DNA of 64,000 nucleotides from an uncultured Chlorobiaceae bacterium. GTDB lineage: Bacteria > Bacteroidota > Chlorobiia > Chlorobiales > Chlorobiaceae. Both the position numbers and the translations under genes were made by a program. This document shows, piece after piece, positions 3,711 to 46,096 of the stretch. How positions within the stretch are numbered: position 1 is the first letter of the stretch; each line of letters opens with the position of its first letter. A model generated the notes under the pieces. That model had not been told where the DNA came from and did no database searches. It was given only the letters and a program-made list of their open reading frames with translations. The stretch spans positions 705 through 64,704 of the forward strand of contig CAIJWE010000072.1 of assembly GCA_903824295.1 (NCBI GenBank), read 5' to 3'.

Positions 3711-4994
3711 TCATGCAAAATACTCTTTCATCCTGCGGAACACCTCTTTTTTGCCAAGCAGGCCGCTGATCATGCCGAGCACCGTTGCAGCCCCGGCAGC
3801 AAAAAAGAGCGGGCGGGAGGAGATGTTGTTGGTGTAATAGATAGCCGGGATTCCACGCTCCTTGGCAAAGCTGTCGAGCGAGGTGGTGCCGATGACAAGA
3901 TCAGGCCCATAGTCAATTACCGCCTGCATATCCTCTTCAAGGTACTTGCGATAACGAATCTCGGTGCCGAGCATGGTGAGCACCTTGTGATCTTCCTCTC
4001 CAAGCGGCATTCGTGCAATGGAGGTAGAGGCGTAGGGCACCTCAAGACCAGCCTCAAGCAGGAGACGGACAAGGGGAAGCTCATTGCCTTCGTAACCGGC
4101 CACAATCACCTTTCCCTTCAACTGGCTGAACTGCGCAAGCACCGCCCTGGTTTTCTGCGATTCCTCTTCGGCAACAGCCTGAACGGTCACGGGATCAAGG
4201 CCGAGAGCCTCTCCGATTCGACCGATCCATTGCGCCGTTGCATTCGCTCCGATAGGGTTCCCCTTGACAATCTTTACACCCTTCTCTTCAAGCAGCGAAA
4301 CCGTTCTTTCATAAAAGGGGTGGAGCACCGCACAAGCTTCAGCCTGACCTGCCTCGATATAATCCTCAAGCGCCGTGCCAGGCAGCGTTATGACCGACTC
4401 AACACCTATTTTCTGAAGAACCGCCCCGATGGTCATGGCATCAACCGGAAATATCTCACCGAGCACAACAAGTGATTTCAATTTTTTTTGGCCTTCAAAG
4501 CGGCCAAATCGCTTCAGGAGCGTCGCCACAGCAACATCTTTTGCCTCAGGGTGTGTCCTGATCTGGAAGGCTGGCAGGCGTACCAGCAGCACCTCCGCAT
4601 TGCCAGCCTTGCGGGGCAGCAGCTCCTCGGCAATTCCGGCAGTTTCAGCCACACAGGTGCTTACCACCGGAATAAAACGCACCGCAGGGTCGCGGGCAAT
4701 CTCCTCTATCGTGCGACGCACATCGTCAATCATGGTTCCGCCTGAAATCTGCACATTCATCAGTTCAGGTGAAATGATCGATTTGCGTGCAGCATAAAAA
4801 TGCGACACAAAGGTGAGCCCGTAGAGGCACCCCTGATCGGCCACCAGACAAACCTGGACACCGTCTATTCTTGTCAGCACCCTCAGCCCACCGAATGCCG
4901 GACACATCGACTGGGGATGCAACGTGTTACAACCCTTTTTTTCCATGAAGCACAACCCTCTTGATAACATGTTGGATATAGGCGCCGTCAGCAA
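3711..4994 (-). CDS. bchY: Nitrogenase-like chlorophyllide a reductase subunit Y (BchY-like)
   Basis: 'HPQSMCPAFGGLRV' and 'CLYGLTFVSHFYAARKS' match the BchY motifs I remember. Three Cys at C31/C56/C114 have the spacing (25, 58) typical of BchN/BchY-type cluster ligands. The true start is probably an internal Met (4970 or 4946). Confidence 0.6.
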   Translation of the reverse strand: MLTAPISNMLSRGLCFMEKKGCNTLHPQSMCPAFGGLRVLTRIDGVQVCLVADQGCLYGLTFVSHFYAARKSIISPELMNVQISGGTMIDDVRRTIEEIARDPAVRFIPVVSTCVAETAGIAEELLPRKAGNAEVLLVRLPAFQIRTHPEAKDVAVATLLKRFGRFEGQKKLKSLVVLGEIFPVDAMTIGAVLQKIGVESVITLPGTALEDYIEAGQAEACAVLHPFYERTVSLLEEKGVKIVKGNPIGANATAQWIGRIGEALGLDPVTVQAVAEEESQKTRAVLAQFSQLKGKVIVAGYEGNELPLVRLLLEAGLEVPYASTSIARMPLGEEDHKVLTMLGTEIRYRKYLEEDMQAVIDYGPDLVIGTTSLDSFAKERGIPAIYYTNNISSRPLFFAAGAATVLGMISGLLGKKEVFRRMKEYFA

Positions 4995-6009
4995 TATTTT
5001 GCGCCATTCGCGCGATACGCTCTCTGGCCGCCTGACGACTTGAAAAATTGCCCGTAATGAGCCTGTAGTATTTGATTCCCTTTACCTCTGCCGGCCAGAC
5101 AAAAGCCATCACCCGTTCTGAACGCAGACGAGCCACCTCTTTCTGAACACTCTCCGTCTTGCTCAGGGTAACGAGCACTATGGTATAACTTTCCGGAACA
5201 AGAACAAGTGAGCTATCGGCATCTTCCCTTGCAGCAGAACGAAGGGTAACGCTGGGCTCGCTGACCGTGACGTTCTCGTTGTGAACCACTGCGGCGGCGG
5301 CACTCTCTGCCTGAATCGCAGCCTTGAGGATGCCGGCAGGTTGCGGCACCGTTGCATGGGAAAAGAGTGGTTTGGGTTCTATGCTGTAGAAAAGGGCAAG
5401 CAGCAAGGCGACAACAGTCAAAAATGCAAGCGGCACCTTGTAACGAAGCATTTTCTGCGCACCCTTCTCTTGCCGTTGCTCACGCAGTGGCAGAACAACC
5501 TCCTGAAGATCCTGATACTCCCGGTTTAAAAGCTCTTCAAGAGATCGTTCAGGAAAAAAAACAAGAGTTCTCTGCTCAAGAGTAAAGCGGCCTATGCCGT
5601 TCAGGCGGATCTCTCTCTGCTGCTGAACCGCACGCATGAAGAGAGCGGCAAGAGCCGCACAAAACCGATCGGCATCTTCGGGGCTCATGGAAAGACGAGA
5701 AACTGCCAGACGCAGGGTATCATCAGCGCCCGTCAGCCGATTGGTGAAGAGGAGGCGGTTACTCGGAGGAGTATAGATAACGGTTGAAGCGCTGCTCTTT
5801 TTTGCTGCGGAGAAATGCGTCACCGCAAACGTCCCAAGCCCTTTAATTGAGAGCTTCCGTACAGCAAGAAGCTCCGCCGCCATGGCAGAGGAAAATCGGA
5901 CCAGAAGCAACTCCGCATCATGCCGCTCAACGTCAAGCAGTCCGGCAAGCTCTTCTACACAATCATGCTGTATCATAACGTCATGCTTCCCCGATCGGGC
6001 AGTCGCCAC
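4927..6009 (-). CDS. HU-like DNA-binding repeat / SPOR-domain membrane protein
   Basis: Two HU-like segments ('KLSIKGLGTFAV', 'IRLNGIGRFTL'), one TM helix (VPLAFLTVVALLLALFY), and a C-terminal SPOR-like domain ('YTIVLVTL..EVARLRS..KYYRLITGNFSSRQAARERIARM'). Confidence 0.6.
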   Translation of the reverse strand: MATARSGKHDVMIQHDCVEELAGLLDVERHDAELLLVRFSSAMAAELLAVRKLSIKGLGTFAVTHFSAAKKSSASTVIYTPPSNRLLFTNRLTGADDTLRLAVSRLSMSPEDADRFCAALAALFMRAVQQQREIRLNGIGRFTLEQRTLVFFPERSLEELLNREYQDLQEVVLPLREQRQEKGAQKMLRYKVPLAFLTVVALLLALFYSIEPKPLFSHATVPQPAGILKAAIQAESAAAAVVHNENVTVSEPSVTLRSAAREDADSSLVLVPESYTIVLVTLSKTESVQKEVARLRSERVMAFVWPAEVKGIKYYRLITGNFSSRQAARERIARMAQNIADGAYIQHVIKRVVLHGKKGL

Positions 6010-6154: not shown

Positions 6155-8695
6155 TCAAAAGGCTTTCGTGATACCTGCCATCAACGTATAGTCGTATGAA
6201 TTTTTTCCGCCATCCATGCCACAGAGTGCTCCAACCTTGGCGTAGTAGGCAACGCTCTCTTTTTTATTGGTTTTCGCACTGCTGATACCGATCGCTCCTC
6301 CAAGTTTTGTGGTTTCCGGTTTTGAGTTGAGGATACTGTTGTCTGCCGCATAGATGACCTGAGAATTATCGGTAAAGTCTTTGACCAGATTAACTTCAAA
6401 GAAGGGATTGAAGGGTACACCTGTTTTCGTGAAGGTACCGGTCAGACCGAGACGGGCGCGCAACCCGTCATGGCTCTTGATGGTGGCATCACCAATAACG
6501 GTTGAGATATTGATGTCGCCCCTGTGCTGGTAGATAAGCTGCGCCTGAGGTTCGAGCTTCAGCGAGTTGGCGGTCTGCAGAGTAAAACCACCCTCAAGCG
6601 AGGAGAGAAAGCTCCATGTGTGTGTTGTGATGGTTTCCGGCTCATCAGGAGTGATGATATCGATGTAATGATAGCCAGATTGAACCACCCCTTCGATGTA
6701 GTAGGATTCGGGACGCTCAATGCTTGCATAGAGCCCCAGATTATAGACGTTCTGGGTCAGCTCTCCGGCCTTCGACGTTAGAATGCCAGCAACATCTGCT
6801 TTCTGCCATCCGGTTCCGGCATAGCCACCAATGTGGTATTGTAACATCTCCTTGCCTTTACTGCCGGTGAGGAAATCGCCGCCTATTTGCGTGCCACCGC
6901 TGAAACCCTTGATGGTTGTTGCGGCATCACCCGTAGTACCAATGGCAAAAGAGCTGCCATAGGCACGAGCCCAGAACATCGGCGACTCTTTTTCACCGCG
7001 GGCAAGATGGTTATAGGCATGACGGTCGTGGAACCCGGCAAGCGACTCAAAACCAAGGTTTTCAACAAACGGAGTTACCCCTTGCAAAAGGGCAGCCTCT
7101 TCACGGTAGCGGTCAAATTCGAGAGAAGAGAAATAATAAAAGCCGTTATTCTCAGTCAAGGTGAAGGTGTAGAGCTTTGGCCCATAGGGATAGATGTACT
7201 GCCCGGCAGTGAAGACGCCGGGAGTAGCAGCAGGAACAGTGGTCAGCAACAAAATCTCTGTTGCTGGACTTGTTGGCACTCCAAGCTCATAAAGATCAAG
7301 TCTGGTGATACCGGTTGTCGCACCGTTAATGGCAACCCGATCAGCTTCTGCACTGCCAGTATGAACATCAAGCTTGATGGATCCACTGATGCCTTGATAG
7401 GCGCCGTTGATCGTCAGCCGGTCTCCCGTATCGTGGTTGTCGACAAGACTGATGGAGCCTGAGTTGGTGATTGGTCCCGTCAGTGTGTAAAATCCGGGGG
7501 ATGAACCTGCTGCAAGAAGGGTGGATGTTGCGTCAATGGTGAGGCCGTTCGAAAATGTTATCACTTTTGGAAGCTGCAAATCTGTAGAAGCACCGAGATT
7601 GACTGTGGAGCCGTTTTTCAGTTCAATAGTCTCCCATTCGGTGACAGTGACGCCGCTCAACGACCCGCTCCATCCATCAAACTGCAGTTGATCGTTATCG
7701 TCTCCGCCGCCAAGCAGCGGAACTCCTGAAATATCGGCATGACCCCTGAGGATGAAGCGATCATCACCCTCATTGAGAACAACACTGCCGATCAGTTTGC
7801 CATTACCACACAGGGCGACCAAGTCATTGTTCGCCCCCTGGGAATAAATGGCATAAGCATGGGATATGCTATCGGGCGCATAGGCCGCAACAGTACCGGA
7901 AATGCCACTTAACAGATCGGATAATGAGCCTATTGTGAGACCATGAGCTCTCAAACCATAAACATTGGCATCAAAATCAGATGTACCGCCAGTTGCAGTA
8001 ATGGTGCCTGAAAGTTTGTTGATTTGTATATGGGCACCTTGTCCCCATATACCTACGCCATAAGCAGTGGAAACAGAGCTTCCACTACTTGCTGTGATAG
8101 AACCAGAAAAATTATTGATGTCGATATTTTCTCTGCTAAAAATACCTATACCAGAAGAATAAGACGATGCTGTATTTCCTTTTGCTGTAATAGCGCCTGT
8201 AAAGTTATCGATTTCGACTCCACCAGAATTCCAGTTAACGATACCCACAGCTTCAGCGGTATATCCATATCCGGCGGTTACATTTATGGCTCCTGAAAAT
8301 GTGCCAATCGTAATTTTACCATCTACATTACCAATTCCAGTAGCACTACAATAAGATGAAGAGTTTCCAGCTCCACCAGTGGCCGTAATGGTGACATCAT
8401 TTGTAATTTCGTTGATATTGATCGTGCCGTTATCAATCCATATACCATGAGCATCAGCATCTGTTGATGTTGCTGTAATAGTACTGTTTGAGATCGTACC
8501 AATAGCAATATTGCCAGTACCATCTATAATATCATACCCGTAAGTTTGAAATGGATCCACGGCGTTTACTGTTCCAGATAAGGGGCCAGCAGTAATAGTC
8601 GCACCATCGATGTTAGCGCCTCCAGCGGCATAAGCCTGTGATGACCAGGCAAGTGTCACCAGCAGAAGGATATTGCTTAACACTCTTTTTTTCAT
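6155..8695 (-). CDS. Autotransporter outer-membrane protein (repetitive passenger + C-terminal beta-barrel)
   Basis: Signal peptide MKKRVLSNILLLVTLAWSSQAYA. Repeated 'G.I.ATGG/ITASSG' passenger units. C-terminal autotransporter beta-domain ending in ...MAGITKAF. Confidence 0.8.
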   Translation of the reverse strand: MKKRVLSNILLLVTLAWSSQAYAAGGANIDGATITAGPLSGTVNAVDPFQTYGYDIIDGTGNIAIGTISNSTITATSTDADAHGIWIDNGTININEITNDVTITATGGAGNSSSYCSATGIGNVDGKITIGTFSGAINVTAGYGYTAEAVGIVNWNSGGVEIDNFTGAITAKGNTASSYSSGIGIFSRENIDINNFSGSITASSGSSVSTAYGVGIWGQGAHIQINKLSGTITATGGTSDFDANVYGLRAHGLTIGSLSDLLSGISGTVAAYAPDSISHAYAIYSQGANNDLVALCGNGKLIGSVVLNEGDDRFILRGHADISGVPLLGGGDDNDQLQFDGWSGSLSGVTVTEWETIELKNGSTVNLGASTDLQLPKVITFSNGLTIDATSTLLAAGSSPGFYTLTGPITNSGSISLVDNHDTGDRLTINGAYQGISGSIKLDVHTGSAEADRVAINGATTGITRLDLYELGVPTSPATEILLLTTVPAATPGVFTAGQYIYPYGPKLYTFTLTENNGFYYFSSLEFDRYREEAALLQGVTPFVENLGFESLAGFHDRHAYNHLARGEKESPMFWARAYGSSFAIGTTGDAATTIKGFSGGTQIGGDFLTGSKGKEMLQYHIGGYAGTGWQKADVAGILTSKAGELTQNVYNLGLYASIERPESYYIEGVVQSGYHYIDIITPDEPETITTHTWSFLSSLEGGFTLQTANSLKLEPQAQLIYQHRGDINISTVIGDATIKSHDGLRARLGLTGTFTKTGVPFNPFFEVNLVKDFTDNSQVIYAADNSILNSKPETTKLGGAIGISSAKTNKKESVAYYAKVGALCGMDGGKNSYDYTLMAGITKAF

Positions 8696-41934: not shown

Positions 41935-42771
41935 CTAAAATAACTCTTTACCAAGAATCCGGCGCATACCAGCGAATATCCTGAAAAACGTTTTTGCCAG
42001 CGGCTCATACCTCACGCGACGGTTTCGTCCCTCTATCGCCCGTATTTTCGGCACCAGAACAGCCGCCACCTTTTCAGGCTTTTCTGCGATAACCCGTAAA
42101 AACCTGCTTGCCGATTCCGTCGCATCGCGAAGCAAAAGTTCTGTCAGCACCAGAGCGGGACTCAACTCATGAACCCCAATACTTGTTACCCCTGCCGCCT
42201 TTAACTCCCCCGAAAGAAAGTGGGTCACTTCAGCCACCCCCCGTTTCGACGCCTTGTGGGGCACCGCTGAACGCGACAAAGCCGCCCCTGCCGAGGAAAA
42301 GCCCATATTGAAAATATGATAGCACGGTTTTTTGGAAGCTGGCTGCCGCCGCATCACCCTGACAGCCTCAGCACACATAACAATGGTGCCCGAAAGGTTG
42401 GTCGAGCATGTTTCGCGAATATCTTCCCCGTCCAGCTCCCACAACGGTCGCTTCAAGAGCCCCGCCGTCCCTGCATTGTTAATCCAGCGATCCACCCTTC
42501 CAAGCCGCGAAACCGCAAAATCGGCAAGCAATTTTCCGCTGGAACGCTCGCCCACGTCGCAAACAATGCCATGCACCGCCCCTCCCGGCACAGCCAGACG
42601 AAGGGAGTGTAACGCATCCTCTACACCCTGCCAATTTCTGCCGCAGAGCACAACACGGTCACCCGCCGCAAGAAATTCTGACGCAAGAGCATAGCCCAGC
42701 CCCTTGCTTCCACCGGTGATGACAACGCCAAGAGAGCGCTCTCTATCCTTTATTGTACACGCTGATGCCAC
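41935..42771 (-). CDS. Classical short-chain dehydrogenase/reductase
   Basis: 'VITGGSKGLGYALA','NNAG'. GTG start at 42771. Confidence 0.75.
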   Translation of the reverse strand: MASACTIKDRERSLGVVITGGSKGLGYALASEFLAAGDRVVLCGRNWQGVEDALHSLRLAVPGGAVHGIVCDVGERSSGKLLADFAVSRLGRVDRWINNAGTAGLLKRPLWELDGEDIRETCSTNLSGTIVMCAEAVRVMRRQPASKKPCYHIFNMGFSSAGAALSRSAVPHKASKRGVAEVTHFLSGELKAAGVTSIGVHELSPALVLTELLLRDATESASRFLRVIAEKPEKVAAVLVPKIRAIEGRNRRVRYEPLAKTFFRIFAGMRRILGKELF

Positions 42772-42785
42772 TACAGACCCCGTTC

Positions 42786-42833
42786 AACCTTCACCATACC
42801 AAACCCCATAGAATTCTTTTCACCAAACCCGCA
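42786..42833. repeat. 48-bp direct repeat, copy 1 (encodes the cas6 C-terminal motif on the minus strand)
   Basis: aaccttcaccataccaaaccccatagaattcttttcaccaaacccgca is identical to 44753-44800. Minus-strand reading gives CGFGEKNSMGFGMVKV, then ERGL* (stop at 42771-42773). Confidence 0.95.
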
Positions 42834-42844
42834 GCTAAACAACG

Positions 42845-44530
42845 TCAAGTCAACTTGCCAGGAACAAACCCAAGCAGGCGATCGAGGTCATAGCGGCTTT
42901 TGGCTGACTTGAAATAGCCGTTGTGCGAGTATGTTAACCCTTTCGCCGTATAGATGGTTTTTTCATCCCCGGATGCCTGAAACAGAGCATCGTACACGCT
43001 ACGGTAGTGTGCTGAATAATCATCGCCATCAAGTTTGTAGAGGCCATAACAGAAAAGTTCGTCGGCATACATCACAAAATCTGCATGACTGTCGGCTCCA
43101 TTGCGCTGCTCTACAACGAAACGATAGATGTGATAGACCGCGAGCAACTGCTGATAGAGTGGTGAATCGGCATCCCCTGAAAAAAGAAAATGCAAGGGGT
43201 GACTGCTGGTTGAAGTTGCTTCAAAAATCTCTTCGAGTACCCTGGCCTTGGAGTTTTTGGCAAGCTCCGGCTTTTCGTAACAGGTGGCATACCAGAACTT
43301 CAGTAAATGGTCGGCATGAATGGATTCGTTGAGAGCACGACTATAGCTGTTTTCAAAAGTCTCTCCCCGTTTTGTCAAGTAACCAATTCCCCGCGACTCA
43401 AACAAGGCTTTGACATAGTGGTTGAAATTTTTGTTACTCATCTTGTCGCGAAAATTGATGGGCGACTGGGTATTGGTTGCATCCGTAATTTTGGCAACCA
43501 GTTCAGGATCCGCAGTTTCATAGAGACGCATCAAAACGTACACGCCCTCCAAATCCGCAGGGTTGTTGAGGTATGCGTCATAGATGACATGGGTCGTCTG
43601 CAAGCCGTTGACAATTACCGGGTTTTTGGTTTCAACAGGATAGACTCCAGCCTGCATTTCACGGGGTATCTTTACCTGCTCGGCAATGATGGTGATGCCA
43701 TTGTTCAAAAAGGGAAAATACTCGGCATAGTCGCTCTGGATGGTTTCGCGAATTTTTGTATTCGTTCGGTTTGAACCCAAATAGCCACGGATATTATCGC
43801 TGAAAACGGAATCAATACGCTTGTTGACCTCCTTCTCCTTGTCGAGCAAGCGGCAAAGGTCGAGCGCCGACAATCGAAAATTAAGAGCCTTGACATTCTG
43901 TATCTGAAAAGAGATCAATGCCTGTGGGTCACTTTTCAAAGAGATGTTGGAGCGCTGCGCCATAAAACTGAAGGTGACAGGCTTGCGCTTCCGGTGTTCT
44001 GCTACCAGATTTTCTATCTGATCATAAAGATCATTGCGATCGTAAATGGTCAATCGCTCATTGGCCTCCAGATGCCGCGTGGCAATCGCCCGATTCTGGG
44101 GGGTTATCTCGCCACCAAAAACAAAATGCAACTGTGTCTCAATTGCCCGTCCCGAAAGGGCGAGTGAGTGATACATCTCAAAAGCCCTGGTAACCTTACT
44201 GTTCAAGGGGAGTTGCGTGATATTGCCAAACACAAAGAGATTCCGGTAATCATTGACAAACTTTGCAAGAATAGTATCGCCAAGATGAGCCCCTGACTTT
44301 ACCTGAAAGAGATGTATGACCGCCTCCTCCTCGTCAATAAAAATGCCATCCATCCCTCCATCGTGCGAACCACTGCCATTTTCAAGGGTTGAAACATTGT
44401 CCATAACCTCATCAAAGGTCATATCAAGCACAGCGGCAACAGCAAGGATTTCAAAAGCAAAATCCTTTGACAGCCCAAACCTGCTGGCAATACGCCCAAT
44501 AAAACCATCAAGAAAAAGATCCCGGTTCAT
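42845..44530 (-). CDS. AIPR (abortive-infection phage-resistance) family protein
   Basis: 'IRGYLGSNRTNTKIRETI..FPFLNNGITIIAE' is the AIPR core. Start set at Met59 of the ORF (44530, MNRDLFLDGF...). Confidence 0.75.
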   Translation of the reverse strand: MNRDLFLDGFIGRIASRFGLSKDFAFEILAVAAVLDMTFDEVMDNVSTLENGSGSHDGGMDGIFIDEEEAVIHLFQVKSGAHLGDTILAKFVNDYRNLFVFGNITQLPLNSKVTRAFEMYHSLALSGRAIETQLHFVFGGEITPQNRAIATRHLEANERLTIYDRNDLYDQIENLVAEHRKRKPVTFSFMAQRSNISLKSDPQALISFQIQNVKALNFRLSALDLCRLLDKEKEVNKRIDSVFSDNIRGYLGSNRTNTKIRETIQSDYAEYFPFLNNGITIIAEQVKIPREMQAGVYPVETKNPVIVNGLQTTHVIYDAYLNNPADLEGVYVLMRLYETADPELVAKITDATNTQSPINFRDKMSNKNFNHYVKALFESRGIGYLTKRGETFENSYSRALNESIHADHLLKFWYATCYEKPELAKNSKARVLEEIFEATSTSSHPLHFLFSGDADSPLYQQLLAVYHIYRFVVEQRNGADSHADFVMYADELFCYGLYKLDGDDYSAHYRSVYDALFQASGDEKTIYTAKGLTYSHNGYFKSAKSRYDLDRLLGFVPGKLT

Positions 44531-44734
44531 GCACCTGCCTTCATTGTTTTTAATAGAAATCTCCACGACCCTTCTGCCATCAGCAAATGGAGGGCCATTC
44601 CCTCTTGAACGAGCAAATATAAGCAGAATAGATGAAGATAGAGTCCTTGTTTTCCCCAATCGCATAACAGTGCATGGGGCTTTCCGTCTCAGGCCAACAC
44701 CCAATTGTCAACCCTTTTTGCCGGAATCAACTCA

Positions 44735-45007
44735 TCAATCAACGCACAACTGAACCTTCACCATACCAAACCCCATAGAATTCTTTTCACCAAACCCGCA
44801 CGCATAGCCGACCTCCATCAACTCACAGGGAGCCCTCAACCTGAACGGCGCAAGCGTCCCCTTGATCTTTGTCTCATCCGAACGCCCCTCCTTCAACGTA
44901 ATCAGCTTCTGAACCTTCCCCTGCATCCGCTCAACATAAGCTGCATCAAGAGCAAAACCAAACTGCCCGGGCAAAGGTTGAGTTTTTGAAAAAATTGAGT
45001 CAACGAA
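44735..45007 (-). pseudogene. cas6: cas6 C-terminal fragment (CRISPR endoribonuclease relic)
   Basis: 'IKGTLAPFRLRAPCELMEVGYACGFGEKNSMGFGMV' carries the Cas6 glycine-rich 'G.G..(x)..GFG' loop. The upstream part of the 239-aa ORF looks non-coding and overlaps the opposite-strand gene. Confidence 0.55.
44753..44800. repeat. 48-bp direct repeat, copy 2
   Basis: Perfect copy of 42786-42833. The flanking bases differ on both sides. Confidence 0.95.
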
Positions 45008-45334
45008 ACAATTGTCTGGCCGAGTTGGGGCTCGGCGTTCCCGGGCCAAGTACATCATGGGTGACCTTATTGAGTGAGCGGGGGTTCGGAAAACTGGATT
45101 ACCGGATACATCAAAAAAAATGTAAGTTTCGGGCAACTGCGGTAGCGAATGTCGACACACCCACTGCGATGCATGAACATCTGATATTTTTGAACGCGAA
45201 CACATAGAGAATCTTGCCGACTGCACACACGATTGTTGCGGTAACCAGGAGAGTGAGGCGAAACCTCGTTGGCATTGAAATTGTGCCAACGTACTCTGCA
45301 ACGGGAAAAACTGAGCTGAAACAAAGGAAGGAGA

Positions 45335-46096
45335 ATGAAACCACTTGACCTGAACGACGTATCGGCCTACGTTAAAGAGAACATCGGCACGTTGTATCAG
45401 AAAAAAATTGAAGTTCTTGATACGTTTAATTTCTCTGAAATGCTGGAACAGCAAAACTTCTACCTCTGCAGCTTAAAACGGGCTCAGACTATCGGCAAGA
45501 TTGTCAGGGGCCTTGTTGATGCTCATATCTCATCAAACGAGGAGACTGTTTTTGGTGACTGGCTGGAAGGGCTGGCCATTTTTATCAATGAAAAGGTGTA
45601 CGGTGGATGGAAATCGGGCATTGCGGGTATTGACCTTGAATTTGACAAGGAGGGGAAGCGCTTTATCGTCAATATCAAGTCGGGGCCGAATTGGGGGAAC
45701 AGCAGCCAGATTGCCAAAATGAAGTCTGACTTCAAGACTGCGGCAAAGACGTTGCGCACGAGTAACTCAAAGCTTCAGGTTGTTGCGGTTAATGGATGCT
45801 GTTACGGGAGAACCACGACTTCGGATCAGGGTGACTATTTCAAGTATTGCGGTCAGACCTTTTGGGAGTTTATCTCTTCAGATCCCAATCTCTACACCGA
45901 GCTTATCGACCCGCTGGGTCACATGGCGCGGGAAAAAAACGATGAGTTTCAAGACTCCTATGCGCGAATGGTCAATAAATTTACCGTTCAATTCGGGAGC
46001 GAGTATTGCGACAGCAGTGGGGCTATCAACTGGCACAAGCTCGTGGCTTTCAATTCCTCTACGATTCAGTTGCCGGAGCGCCGACCGACGACATGA
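45335..46096 (+). CDS. Solitary type II restriction-endonuclease-like protein (PmeII/TdeIII-like PD-(D/E)xK candidate)
   Basis: 'GDWLEGLAIFI','GIAGIDLEFDKEGKRFIVNIKSGPNWGNSSQ' resemble the D..(E/N)xK core of this small REase family. No adjacent methyltransferase. Confidence 0.45.
   Translation: MKPLDLNDVSAYVKENIGTLYQKKIEVLDTFNFSEMLEQQNFYLCSLKRAQTIGKIVRGLVDAHISSNEETVFGDWLEGLAIFINEKVYGGWKSGIAGIDLEFDKEGKRFIVNIKSGPNWGNSSQIAKMKSDFKTAAKTLRTSNSKLQVVAVNGCCYGRTTTSDQGDYFKYCGQTFWEFISSDPNLYTELIDPLGHMAREKNDEFQDSYARMVNKFTVQFGSEYCDSSGAINWHKLVAFNSSTIQLPERRPTT

Follow-up and report, generated by a model that had tools for sequence, protein, structure and literature searches.

A single-gene AIPR insertion that duplicates the 3' end of cas6 in Chlorobiaceae fits ordinary, homology-anchored recombination

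Introduction

How does a single gene of a defense family come to lie between two identical copies of the last conserved segment of another gene? The question is raised by a locus in a 64,000-nucleotide stretch of DNA from an uncultured Chlorobiaceae bacterium (hereafter, the window), in which a gene for an AIPR protein sits at the 3' end of a cas6 remnant. Defense islands gain and lose single genes fast, often without visible mobile-element machinery, and this locus constitutes a clean natural series of empty, filled and derived alleles across related Chlorobiaceae populations. A first-pass annotation of the window had described the repeat and read the arrangement as an att-like site-specific or microhomology-driven insertion, in which one defense gene overwrote another. 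Here we compare the locus with related loci and with other sites occupied by AIPR genes. The pattern is better matched by ordinary recombination than by a new mobile element, and we modestly favor an account in which a cassette of ~1.9 kb, comprising a leader and the AIPR gene, was placed at the cas6 3' extremity by recombinase-independent, homology-anchored 3'-end displacement and then spread.

Methods

Comparative loci, designated by L numbers, were anchored on the gene for an SDR-family oxidoreductase (41935-42771, minus strand; Pfam adh_short, E=5.8e-28), a conserved downstream neighbor whose orthologs in L002-L005 share 87-94% amino acid identity. The displacement topology, in which the 3' part of the upstream gene is repeated, a new tip is attached to it and the old tip lies downstream, was scored in the window, L059 and L023 (cas6), in L024 (Fic) and in L033-L042 (NusG-like). 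For microhomology, the right junctions scored were those of L023 and L024; scoring the window's own junctions needs the donor sequence.

Results

Organization of the locus

Comparison of the two segments at 42786-42833 and 44753-44800 yields a perfect direct repeat of exactly 48 bp, the bases directly outside the two copies being different, and both the coordinates and the sequence match the first-pass description of a perfect repeat around a single AIPR gene and its leader. Allowing up to three mismatches, the 48-mer has just two copies within the 64-kb window, with none expected in 100 shuffles, and it is thus not a dispersed repeat there. Its minus-strand translation is CGFGEKNSMGFGMVKV. 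The copies are separated by 1,919 bp, in which the sole real gene, accompanied by its leader, encodes the 561-aa AIPR protein.

All elements of the locus described below lie on the minus strand unless stated otherwise. The copy at 42786-42833 (R2, formerly copy 1) is the displaced original 3' end of cas6, now a fragment upstream of the SDR gene, and has a single-copy ortholog in the empty-site loci L002, L003, L005 and L019. Direct reading of the sequence continues it into the original Cas6 tail, ERGL and a TAG stop (42771-42785), where the stop (42771-42773) and the SDR gene's GTG start (42769-42771) overlap as TAGTG. Equivalent ends, ESGL or EQGL with a stop and an overlapping GTG, close the intact cas6 genes of L003 and L005 and the cas6 genes of L002 and L019, bearing out the proposal that this copy and ERGL represent the original terminus. 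Between the AIPR stop and R2 lies a right-junction spacer of 11 nt, CGTTGTTTAGC (42834-42844), which shows one change in L059 and is replaced in L023 and L061 by 17 nt of cas6 sequence.

The copy at 44753-44800 (R1, formerly copy 2) is attached to the cas6 remnant and passes, at the left junction GGTT|CAG, into a new Cas6 tail, QLCVD and a stop (44735-44752; stop codon at 44735-44737), within an ORF spanning 44735-45454. The same tail is found on the full-length cas6 of L059 / P0122. A 10-mer, GAAGGTTCAG, occurs inside cas6 (44909-44918) and again at 44750-44759, straddling the junction between R1 and the leader; recombination between its two copies removes R1, as seen in L061.

The cas6 remnant

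The remnant comprises the 72 C-terminal codons of cas6 (44753-44969), the same interval (44969-44753) that is covered by blastn homology to the L003 gene. It scores 58 bits against Pfam Cas_Cas6_C (cutoff 23) and 47 bits against TIGR01877, below the cutoff of 58.65. A full-length Cas6 endoribonuclease has two RRM-like halves and a G-rich loop at its C-terminus, of which the window holds the C-terminal remnant alone. A table of variable sites resolves the remnant into a three-part mosaic, L002-like at its 5' end, L059/L023-like in the middle and L003-like at its 3' end.

The loss of the 5' part of cas6 is an event separate from the AIPR insertion and linked to an EcoO109I-type restriction endonuclease gene (45335-46096, plus strand; Pfam RE_EcoO109I, E=1.7e-80). 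The identical truncation junction is present in L002 and L019, which lack the AIPR gene, and the endonuclease gene does not belong to the AIPR insertion. The changes made by the insertion itself are confined to 4 codons at the very end of Cas6, past the conserved G-rich motif and within a naturally hypervariable C-terminal tail, and L059 keeps a full-length cas6 next to it; the notion of one defense gene overwriting another therefore does not hold.

A type III-B/C-like CRISPR-Cas locus ends, in relatives, with cas6, which lies directly against the SDR gene; the window contains no CRISPR array. We discarded a Cas1-Cas2-type repeat duplication as the source of the 48-mer, which is cas6 coding sequence and unrelated to the CRISPR repeat of L003 (GTTTCAATCCGCTATGCGTGCAATTAGATA...), and a tRNA or tmRNA attachment site, the single tRNA of the window lying at 13 kb.

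The AIPR gene and its leader

The cargo of the insertion is the AIPR/AbiU-like gene at 42845-44530. Its product exceeds the curated threshold of Pfam PF10592 (166.7 bits against a cutoff of 25, E=1.3e-48, residues 243-499), which places it in the AIPR family, and the PADLOC AbiU profile covers most of it (E=1.2e-42, residues 20-469 of 561). It has 494 homologs at E<=1e-20, and a PDB search returned no structural relative. On the strength of its family, the protein is presumably a stand-alone Abi-type defense system. Searches of viral contigs (IMG/VR) and plasmids (PLSDB) yielded nothing closely related, plasmid-borne AIPR proteins being merely 25-26% identical to that of the window, and a phage or plasmid vehicle was rejected on these grounds. 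Membership in an MZA system was likewise set aside: the match to NCBIfam MzaE is weak and partial (35.9 bits against a cutoff of 1050), and the insert holds one gene, the partners MzaA-D being absent.

The leader (44531-44734) has two parts. By alignment, its proximal ~100 nt (44531 to ~44631) recur in conserved form at AIPR genes elsewhere and include TATATTTG (44614-44621), a possible Bacteroidota-type -7 box. Past ~100 nt the leaders at different sites diverge, and the distal part (~44632-44734) has matches in other filled alleles alone and none elsewhere in the window or in the other fetched loci. The leader matches no Rfam family, and there was no sigma-70-type promoter or terminator prediction of note. 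Because no terminator follows the AIPR gene, its transcription probably reads through into the SDR and NmrA genes.

Within the cassette we identified no recombinase, transposase, integrase, RT or nuclease gene, the sole hint being a sub-threshold match to Mrr_cat (E=0.0077). There is no recombinase gene adjacent to the insert either, and its ends carry no inverted repeats.

Empty and filled alleles in related Chlorobiaceae

Relatives provide both states of the site. The Chlorobiaceae MAGs L003 and L005 carry an intact cas6 of 265 aa that runs up to the SDR start; in L002 and L019, which lack the AIPR gene and have the 48-mer once, it is a truncated cas6 that abuts the SDR gene. The empty site proposed in the first-pass annotation thus exists with both intact and truncated cas6. 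Single-copy empty sites are equally expected from homologous deletion. The gene order of the window is matched in three ENA assemblies, and the insertion recurs in three more independently assembled alleles (L023, L059 and L061), so that at least six independent assemblies span the structure. Since R1 and R2 differ at 3/48 positions in L023 and at 1/48 in L059, the copies are physically distinct there. Because filled alleles recur in these independent assemblies, the single-gene insertion into the 3' end of cas6 is genuine and not the assembly artefact against which the annotation had cautioned.

Three backgrounds carry a filled allele (the window, L059 and L023/L061), and the left junction is common to all. 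In L059 the insertion lies alongside a full-length cas6 within a Cas10c-Cmr4-Cmr5-Cmr3-CorA-cas6 module, a type III effector module. Across filled alleles the AIPR gene is 97.2-98.6% identical, against 90.6-93% for the SDR gene, and the SDR side of the window is nearest to that of the empty-site L002. In the window R1 and R2 show no difference at all, and both carry two states that are absent from L059 and L023. In L023 and L061 the spacer has turned into cas6 sequence, giving a repeat of 73 bp, and in L061 R1 is deleted. We rejected the 73-bp repeat of L023 as ancestral, L059 being L023-like by AIPR identity and carrying the window's form of 48 bp and an 11-nt spacer. Breakpoints of other rearrangements likewise cluster at this end of cas6 (L005 7735-7803; L060).

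The same topology at other target genes

Two further sites reproduce the arrangement. An AIPR homolog in L024 is bracketed by a 251-bp duplication of a Fic gene's 3' end (96% identity, 9/251 positions differing), and in L033-L042 and L049-L052 the duplicated segment is 32-40 bp of the end of a NusG-like gene. At both, the upstream gene is co-oriented and gains a new tail, the old tail lying downstream. No sequence is common to the repeats of the cas6, Fic and NusG sites, and their lengths range over 32-40, 48, 73 and 251 bp; none of 280 control intervals in the window bears such repeats. Clear bracketing was found in 3 of ~9 AIPR contexts. L024, L025 and L026 are alleles of one locus and were not kept as three independent contexts; L026 has no terminal overlap and was dropped as a closed circle, and L039, considered as a NusG-site allele without repeat, merely has a scaffold gap at R1.

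All three left junctions are located 0-6 codons from the end of a co-oriented gene, and at every site the inserted unit is tight around the AIPR ORF (-15 to +33 nt around the stop). Right junctions display microhomologies of 5-8 bp (TGAGTTGA in L023, TGTTC in L024), alongside the variation in repeat length. The boundaries of the cas6 and Fic repeats are sharp, with no residual similarity past them, and at the NusG site residual similarity extends beyond the repeat (22/40). Neither cassette end carries a conserved motif or hairpin across ~10 contexts.

Discussion

Proposed homology-anchored displacement

We infer the order of events, the structure of the donor, the possible involvement of a circle and the exact mechanism as follows. 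The incoming DNA would have consisted of a cas6 3' portion joined to an AIPR gene. Upon recombination, the body of the resident cas6 would keep its final 48 conserved bp once (R1) and acquire the 5-codon tail, the leader and the AIPR gene, and its old end (R2, ERGL and the overlapping SDR start) would be shunted intact to the far side. Two routes may be envisaged: entry of a re-circularized fragment by a single crossover in a short stretch of cas6 common to both DNAs, or a left-hand homologous crossover in cas6 combined with an illegitimate, microhomology-type join on the right, upstream of the end of homology; either would duplicate the segment between the two recombination points. Homologous recombination in the flanking cas6 and SDR sequences would then have carried the filled allele from one Chlorobiaceae lineage to another, a step we propose because the flanks are mosaic and the AIPR gene is 97-99% identical against 90-93% for SDR, and later changes may have converted the spacer to cas6 sequence (L023, L061) and removed R1 (L061). 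The differences between repeat copies in L023, L059 and L024 are as expected of donor and recipient alleles or of an old event. Of the two mechanisms first put forward, the microhomology-driven one comes closer, given the 5-8 bp of microhomology at the L023 and L024 right junctions, and the overall topology best fits homology-anchored displacement.

Several considerations weigh against displacement and hold our preference to little better than even. No donor-type locus, with a QLCVD-tailed cas6 followed by AIPR and without R2, was present among the Cas6-fragment homologs and AIPR contexts, every QLCVD-tailed cas6 found also having R2 and SDR, and an AIPR gene would be needed beside a homolog of each target gene in three separate donors. 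Lengths of 32-48 bp are close to the lower limit for a RecA-dependent crossover. The tight fit of the unit around the ORF is not predicted for random donor fragments, the perfect identity of the window copies demands gene conversion or a lucky donor allele, and the sharp cas6 and Fic boundaries suit a one-step duplication equally well as the divergence of hypervariable-tail alleles.

The combination of features places the locus close to the displacement of C-terminal modules in Rhs, CDI and T6SS systems (Jackson et al. 2009, PMC2935791; Kirchberger et al. 2017, PMC5361080). In both, an incoming conserved part arrives with new cargo, the resident gene gets a new tip, the old tip moves downstream with a conserved piece, and a direct repeat of varying length is left without a dedicated recombinase; a circular intermediate has been offered for the varying repeats of Rhs and HFIR-type displacement (homology-facilitated illegitimate recombination) for Vibrio T6SS modules. 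Here, however, the core is a cas6, Fic or NusG-like gene rather than a polymorphic-toxin gene, the new tip amounts to a handful of codons, the cargo proper being an unrelated defense gene that stands alone, the repeats are far shorter (32-251 bp) and no successive orphan array has accumulated. Experimental precedent comes from E. coli, where a single crossover of partly degraded, re-circularized donor DNA gave insertions with variable duplications of 109-950 bp of the homologous locus, and HFIR junctions commonly have microhomology of 3-10 bp (Amarir-Bouhram et al. 2011, PMC3240628). That work used laboratory conjugation and engineered plasmids, whereas our case is drawn from natural variation, and classical HFIR usually deletes the recipient DNA that is here duplicated.

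Alternative explanations

Part of the same evidence would be accommodated by a one-step replicative or repair capture (MMBIR/FoSTeS-like, or by fill-in of long staggered ends), which we consider unlikely. Starting from a fork collapse or a staggered break close to the 3' end of cas6, synthesis would prime on foreign DNA by microhomology, copy the leader and AIPR gene, and return 48 bp upstream of its exit point, duplicating recipient sequence. Window copies that are identical and of the lineage's own allele type, the clean repeat edges, the microhomology at right junctions, a spacer that looks like filler DNA and the variation in repeat length from site to site would all follow, and the cas6-AIPR donor that was not found would be unneeded. 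Such a capture leaves unexplained, however, why three left junctions hit the end of a gene and not intergenic DNA; the residual similarity at the NusG site is expected of two alleles, and the non-identical copies in L023, L059 and L024 also argue against it. To our knowledge, the process is poorly documented for the capture of foreign DNA in bacteria.

The recurrence at three different co-oriented target genes, each struck at its extreme 3' end, may instead suggest that the AIPR family forms a minimal single-gene mobile defense cassette with an insertion route of its own at such ends. We hold this to be improbable, even though duplications of 32-251 bp with 3' microhomology are more like target-primed or replicative insertion than known transposition or att recombination. 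Quite improbable, in our judgment, is also a new autonomous or trans-mobilized element whose insertion chemistry, for example target-primed and transcript-templated, yields variable-length target duplications at gene 3' ends. Variable-length duplications resemble TPRT products, the unit is trimmed tightly to a promoter-proximal leader and the ORF, and its AIPR 3' end shares microhomology with the target at the right junction. Yet the cassette encodes no identifiable RT, nuclease or recombinase beyond the sub-threshold Mrr_cat match, clear bracketing is confined to 3 of ~9 contexts, the leaders diverge between sites beyond ~100 nt, no poly-A/U or defined 3' end is present, and generic recombination produces all the same features.

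The att-like reading also fares poorly, and we deem it very doubtful. It would make the AIPR gene a mobilizable cassette integrated at the cas6 3' end by an integrase acting in trans, with the 48-mer as the identity block of attL and attR. The order of gene body, repeat and element-supplied tail, with the displaced 3' end opposite, is indeed the product of integrases that target the 3' ends of tRNA, tmRNA and protein genes; the left junction is constant in several diverged backgrounds, and the breakpoints in L005 and L060 again fall at the cas6 3' end. But such systems differ from the present one, in which insert and neighborhood lack a recombinase gene, the cargo is a single gene, the identity blocks vary and no core is common to the cas6, Fic and NusG sites, the repeats at the latter two being unrelated in sequence and of other lengths (251 and 32-40 bp). 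The right junction also varies between alleles (48-bp and 73-bp forms), neither cassette end has a conserved motif or hairpin, close relatives are missing from viral contigs and plasmids, and shared junctions are accounted for by descent with flanking homologous recombination. An integron cassette is equally unsuited, with no 3' element or hairpin past the AIPR stop across contexts and no integrase. An assembly artefact or a transposon target-site duplication is exceedingly improbable: short-read assemblies do break at the repeat (the start of unitig L001, the gap of L039), but at least six independent assemblies span the locus with differing copies in L023 and L059, and a duplication of variable rather than fixed length, with no transposase gene or terminal inverted repeats in the 1,919 bp, does not fit a target-site duplication, for which the first-pass annotation had considered 48 bp far too long.

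Implications

Under homology-anchored displacement, the series of alleles would show one route by which a stand-alone Abi-type gene can be slotted at the end of a resident gene, leaving that gene and the start of the downstream operon intact, together with a short direct repeat that can later mediate loss. Because the same signature appears at three unrelated target genes, the comparison suggests that the route has been used repeatedly, and, if it is recurrent, one could search genomes for gene-end duplications as traces of recently acquired defense genes. The locus also documents the stepwise decay of a type III CRISPR-Cas locus into a mixed defense islet. As a minor observation, the Logan unitig L001 starts 29 bp into the repeat.

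Results

Structure of the cas6 insertion

The 48-bp sequence AACCTTCACCATACCAAACCCCATAGAATTCTTTTCACCAAACCCGCA occurs exactly twice in the window, at 44753-44800 (R1) and 42786-42833 (R2), and the repeat is exactly 48 bp long because the bases flanking the two copies differ. A third copy was found nowhere in the 64-kb window, even with three mismatches allowed, and none is expected by chance. On the minus strand, R1 closes a cas6 remnant of 72 C-terminal codons (Pfam Cas_Cas6_C, 58 bits) and runs into a new tail, QLCVD*, whereas R2, also on the minus strand, continues as ERGL*, with a TAG overlapping the GTG start of the SDR gene (41935-42771, minus strand). The sole credible gene in the 1,919 bp between them encodes a 561-aa AIPR-family protein (42845-44530, minus strand; Pfam AIPR, E=1.3e-48; PADLOC AbiU, E=1.2e-42), with a leader of 222 nt upstream and just 11 nt separating its stop from R2. 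The perfect direct repeat around a single AIPR gene reported in the first-pass annotation is thus confirmed.

Between 42.8 and 46.1 kb, GC content is 0.45-0.48, down from about 0.55, and the window contains no CRISPR array. An EcoO109I-type restriction endonuclease gene (45335-46096, plus strand; Pfam E=1.7e-80) lies between mnmA and the cas6 remnant and has no adjoining methyltransferase gene; its counterpart in locus L061 (1-508) is missing about 525 bp from its interior.

Assembly graphs built from short reads are interrupted at the repeat (Logan unitig L001; a scaffold gap in L039). The identical AIPR protein nevertheless occurs in the same gene order (mnmA, EcoO109I-type endonuclease, Cas6 fragment, AIPR, SDR) in three ENA assemblies, one of them with a 2.8-kb contig covering both copies, and three loci (L023, L059 and L061) are independently assembled, diverged versions of the filled structure. 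R1 and R2 also differ from each other within L023 (3/48) and within L059 (1/48), which is beyond assembler invention; an assembly artefact is rejected.

Empty sites and the limits of cas6 loss

With the SDR protein as anchor, we retrieved 18 Chlorobiaceae MAG loci. The empty site is present among them: in L003 and L005 an intact 265-aa cas6 abuts the SDR gene, its stop overlapping the SDR start, which establishes the copy continuing as ERGL* as the original terminus. In L002 and L019 the cas6 remnant shares its 5' truncation, and the EcoO109I-type gene ahead of it, with the window; each has one 48-mer and no AIPR gene. These loci bear out the earlier proposal: AIPR was inserted at the 3' end of cas6, and 48 bp were duplicated.

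The companion claim, that one defence gene overwrote another, is not supported. What the insertion replaced was no more than the four final Cas6 codons. They follow the conserved GFGxxxxxGFG motif, and the tail they belong to is hypervariable by nature, taking the forms ESGL, EQGL, EQCL, DNTLLSE, DFSL and others in homologues. Full-length cas6 stands beside AIPR in L059, and the 5' truncation is a separate event, also found in the AIPR-less L002 and L019 and accompanying the EcoO109I-type gene.

Ancestral locus and decay of the interval

Locus L059 reads Cas10c, Cmr4, Cmr5, Cmr3, a CorA-like accessory gene, full-length cas6, the QLCVD tail, leader, AIPR, the 48-bp R2 and SDR, its effector genes being type III-C-like, and L003 and L005 keep cas6, a Csx3-like gene, a three-repeat mini-array and toxin-antitoxin-like genes. 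From these effector genes and leftovers it follows that cas6 once closed a type III-B/C-like system and directly adjoined SDR. The mnmA-SDR interval is a decaying, hypervariable defence islet, a variability shown by L004 (5480-9163), where cas6 is replaced by a 1,227-aa repeat-rich protein with an autotransporter-like C-terminus.

Several smaller features were noted in these loci. The mini-array (L003 8441-8644; L005 8470-8650) has three repeats of about 34 nt spaced at 71-72 bp, upstream of intact cas6 and csx3, with no effector or adaptation genes within the 10 kb fetched. The L059 cas6 (7483-8283) has one in-frame stop (..PEFE*VVLEN..) and may be a pseudogene or reflect a sequencing error. 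L005 carries a second, decayed cas6 3' end at 7735-7803, 71 bp long with about 80% identity and closing in GAAGGTT followed by TAG. It lies between the Csx3-like gene and the nucleotidyltransferase gene, a position occupied in L003 (compare 7307-7846) by a HEPN gene; this is another rearrangement at the same cas6 end. In L060 (6001-6266) a Cas6 fragment ending ...GFGMVK|PYFKPF... leads directly into an NmrA-like gene, SDR being deleted, a further breakpoint a few bases from the 48-mer end. Nearly all database relatives of the Cas6 C-terminus (P0121-P0142) are short fragments of 64-181 aa with differing tails after GFGMVKV; truncated remnants appear common in these Chlorobiaceae populations, some fragments being contig-edge calls.

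Spread and modification of the filled allele

AIPR identity among the window, L023 and L059 is 97.2-98.6%, against only 90.6-93% for the adjacent SDR. The SDR side of the window is closest to the empty-site L002, and three kinds of sequence make up the window's 217-nt cas6 remnant, a mosaic resembling L002 at 44958-44943, L059/L023 from about 44931 and L003 beside R1. The identities and the mosaic together indicate that the cassette moved between lineages through homologous recombination in its flanks. Because L059 groups with L023 on AIPR but shares its right junction with the window (stop, 11-nt spacer, 48-bp R2), parsimony makes this form the ancestral one. Conversion of the spacer to cas6 sequence in L023 and L061 has lengthened the repeat to 73 bp and put the right junction at an 8-bp microhomology, TGAGTTGA, in which the AIPR stop is contained. 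L061 has lost R1 by deletion between two GAAGGTTCAG 10-mers, one inside cas6 and the other across the R1/leader junction.

AIPR homologues at other genes

AIPR homologues were gathered from some 9-10 independent contexts. In L024, AIPR follows a Fic-domain gene whose 3' coding end is duplicated: 251 bp of it flank AIPR on either side at 96% identity. The copy upstream of AIPR reads into a new tail, the downstream one into the original tail. The right junction lies within AIPR by five codons, at a TGTTC microhomology. L025 and L026 carry the locus as decayed alleles. In L033-L042 and L049-L052, 32-40 bp from the extreme end of a NusG-family gene are repeated 33 nt past the AIPR stop. Two more contexts show weaker repeats (L026, 55 bp at 84%; L044, 67 bp at 88%), and the rest of the contexts show none. 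Flanking repeats of at least 28 bp occurred in 0 of 280 random 1.7-kb intervals of the window. The three clear repeats (cas6, Fic, NusG) share no common sequence, no conserved motif or hairpin was found at either cassette end across AIPR contexts, and the AIPR tail past ...LLGFV differs in nearly every context.

The L044/L045 repeat (2536-2602 and 5872-5937) encloses three small ORFs and AIPR downstream of an AbiEii gene, and may be a multi-gene version of the footprint at cas6. In L043 (AIPR 4001-5680) and L047 (AIPR 902-2584), AIPR sits inside polysaccharide gene clusters between a formyltransferase gene and neuB, with spacers of 20-37 nt and no flanking repeat; in L043, AIPR is additionally preceded by a gene for an AAA_21 ATPase and by a 178-aa ORF. 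A short motif, CGG(G)TCTGTTGTGG, is found repeatedly where rearrangements have their boundaries (L025 3005-3017 and 3053-3065; both contig ends of L026); its resemblance (12/14) to GGGGTCTGTAGTGG at the window's cas6-tail/SDR-start (42772-42785) may be coincidence.

Discussion

The AIPR insertion at cas6 has the topology known from C-terminal displacement at Rhs and T6SS loci. There, the resident gene retains its body and acquires a new tip together with cargo, and its old tip, along with a variable piece of conserved sequence, is shunted downstream. Rhs displacement has been described as homologous integration of a circular intermediate with variable core length (Jackson et al., PMC2935791), T6SS displacement has been attributed to homology-facilitated illegitimate recombination (Kirchberger et al., PMC5361080), and single crossovers with partly degraded, re-circularised donor DNA gave variable duplications of 109-950 bp in experiment (PMC3240628). 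Displacement would explain the 3'-terminal position, new tails, variable repeat length, non-identical copies, junction microhomologies and lack of a recombinase.

Against displacement stand the sharp repeat boundaries at the cas6 and Fic sites, the perfect identity of R1 and R2 in the window, the close trimming of the cassette to the ORF at every site, and a distal leader that, among the loci fetched, matches nothing but other filled alleles. A further weak point is the donor: cas6(QLCVD)-AIPR lacking R2 was not found among Cas6-fragment homologues or AIPR contexts. Because of these weaknesses a one-step template-switch or staggered-break repair event is still a serious rival, albeit an unlikely one. 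An insertion chemistry that is novel and specific to the cassette seems improbable. We regard the AIPR insertion at cas6 as a further, thoroughly documented case of an already known type of event, and gene-end duplication around AIPR, recurrent over three target genes (cas6, Fic, NusG-family), is a modestly interesting pattern. A transposon target-site duplication (no enzyme gene, no terminal repeats, no fixed duplication length) and an att-type integrase (no enzyme gene, no common core among the repeats) are both poorly supported; the att-like site-specific insertion suggested at first is not borne out.

We infer from family membership only that the AIPR cargo would be a stand-alone Abi-type protein. 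It is ruled out as an MZA component (MzaE, 35.9 bits vs a cutoff of 1050), and no solved structure of a relative was found. Between the AIPR stop and SDR there is no terminator-like site, R2 keeps the native 63 nt upstream of SDR, overlapping stop/start included, and transcription from the AIPR leader probably runs on into SDR and NmrA. The conserved leader block begins near TATATTTG (44614-44621), which we presume may be a putative Bacteroidota-type -7 box.
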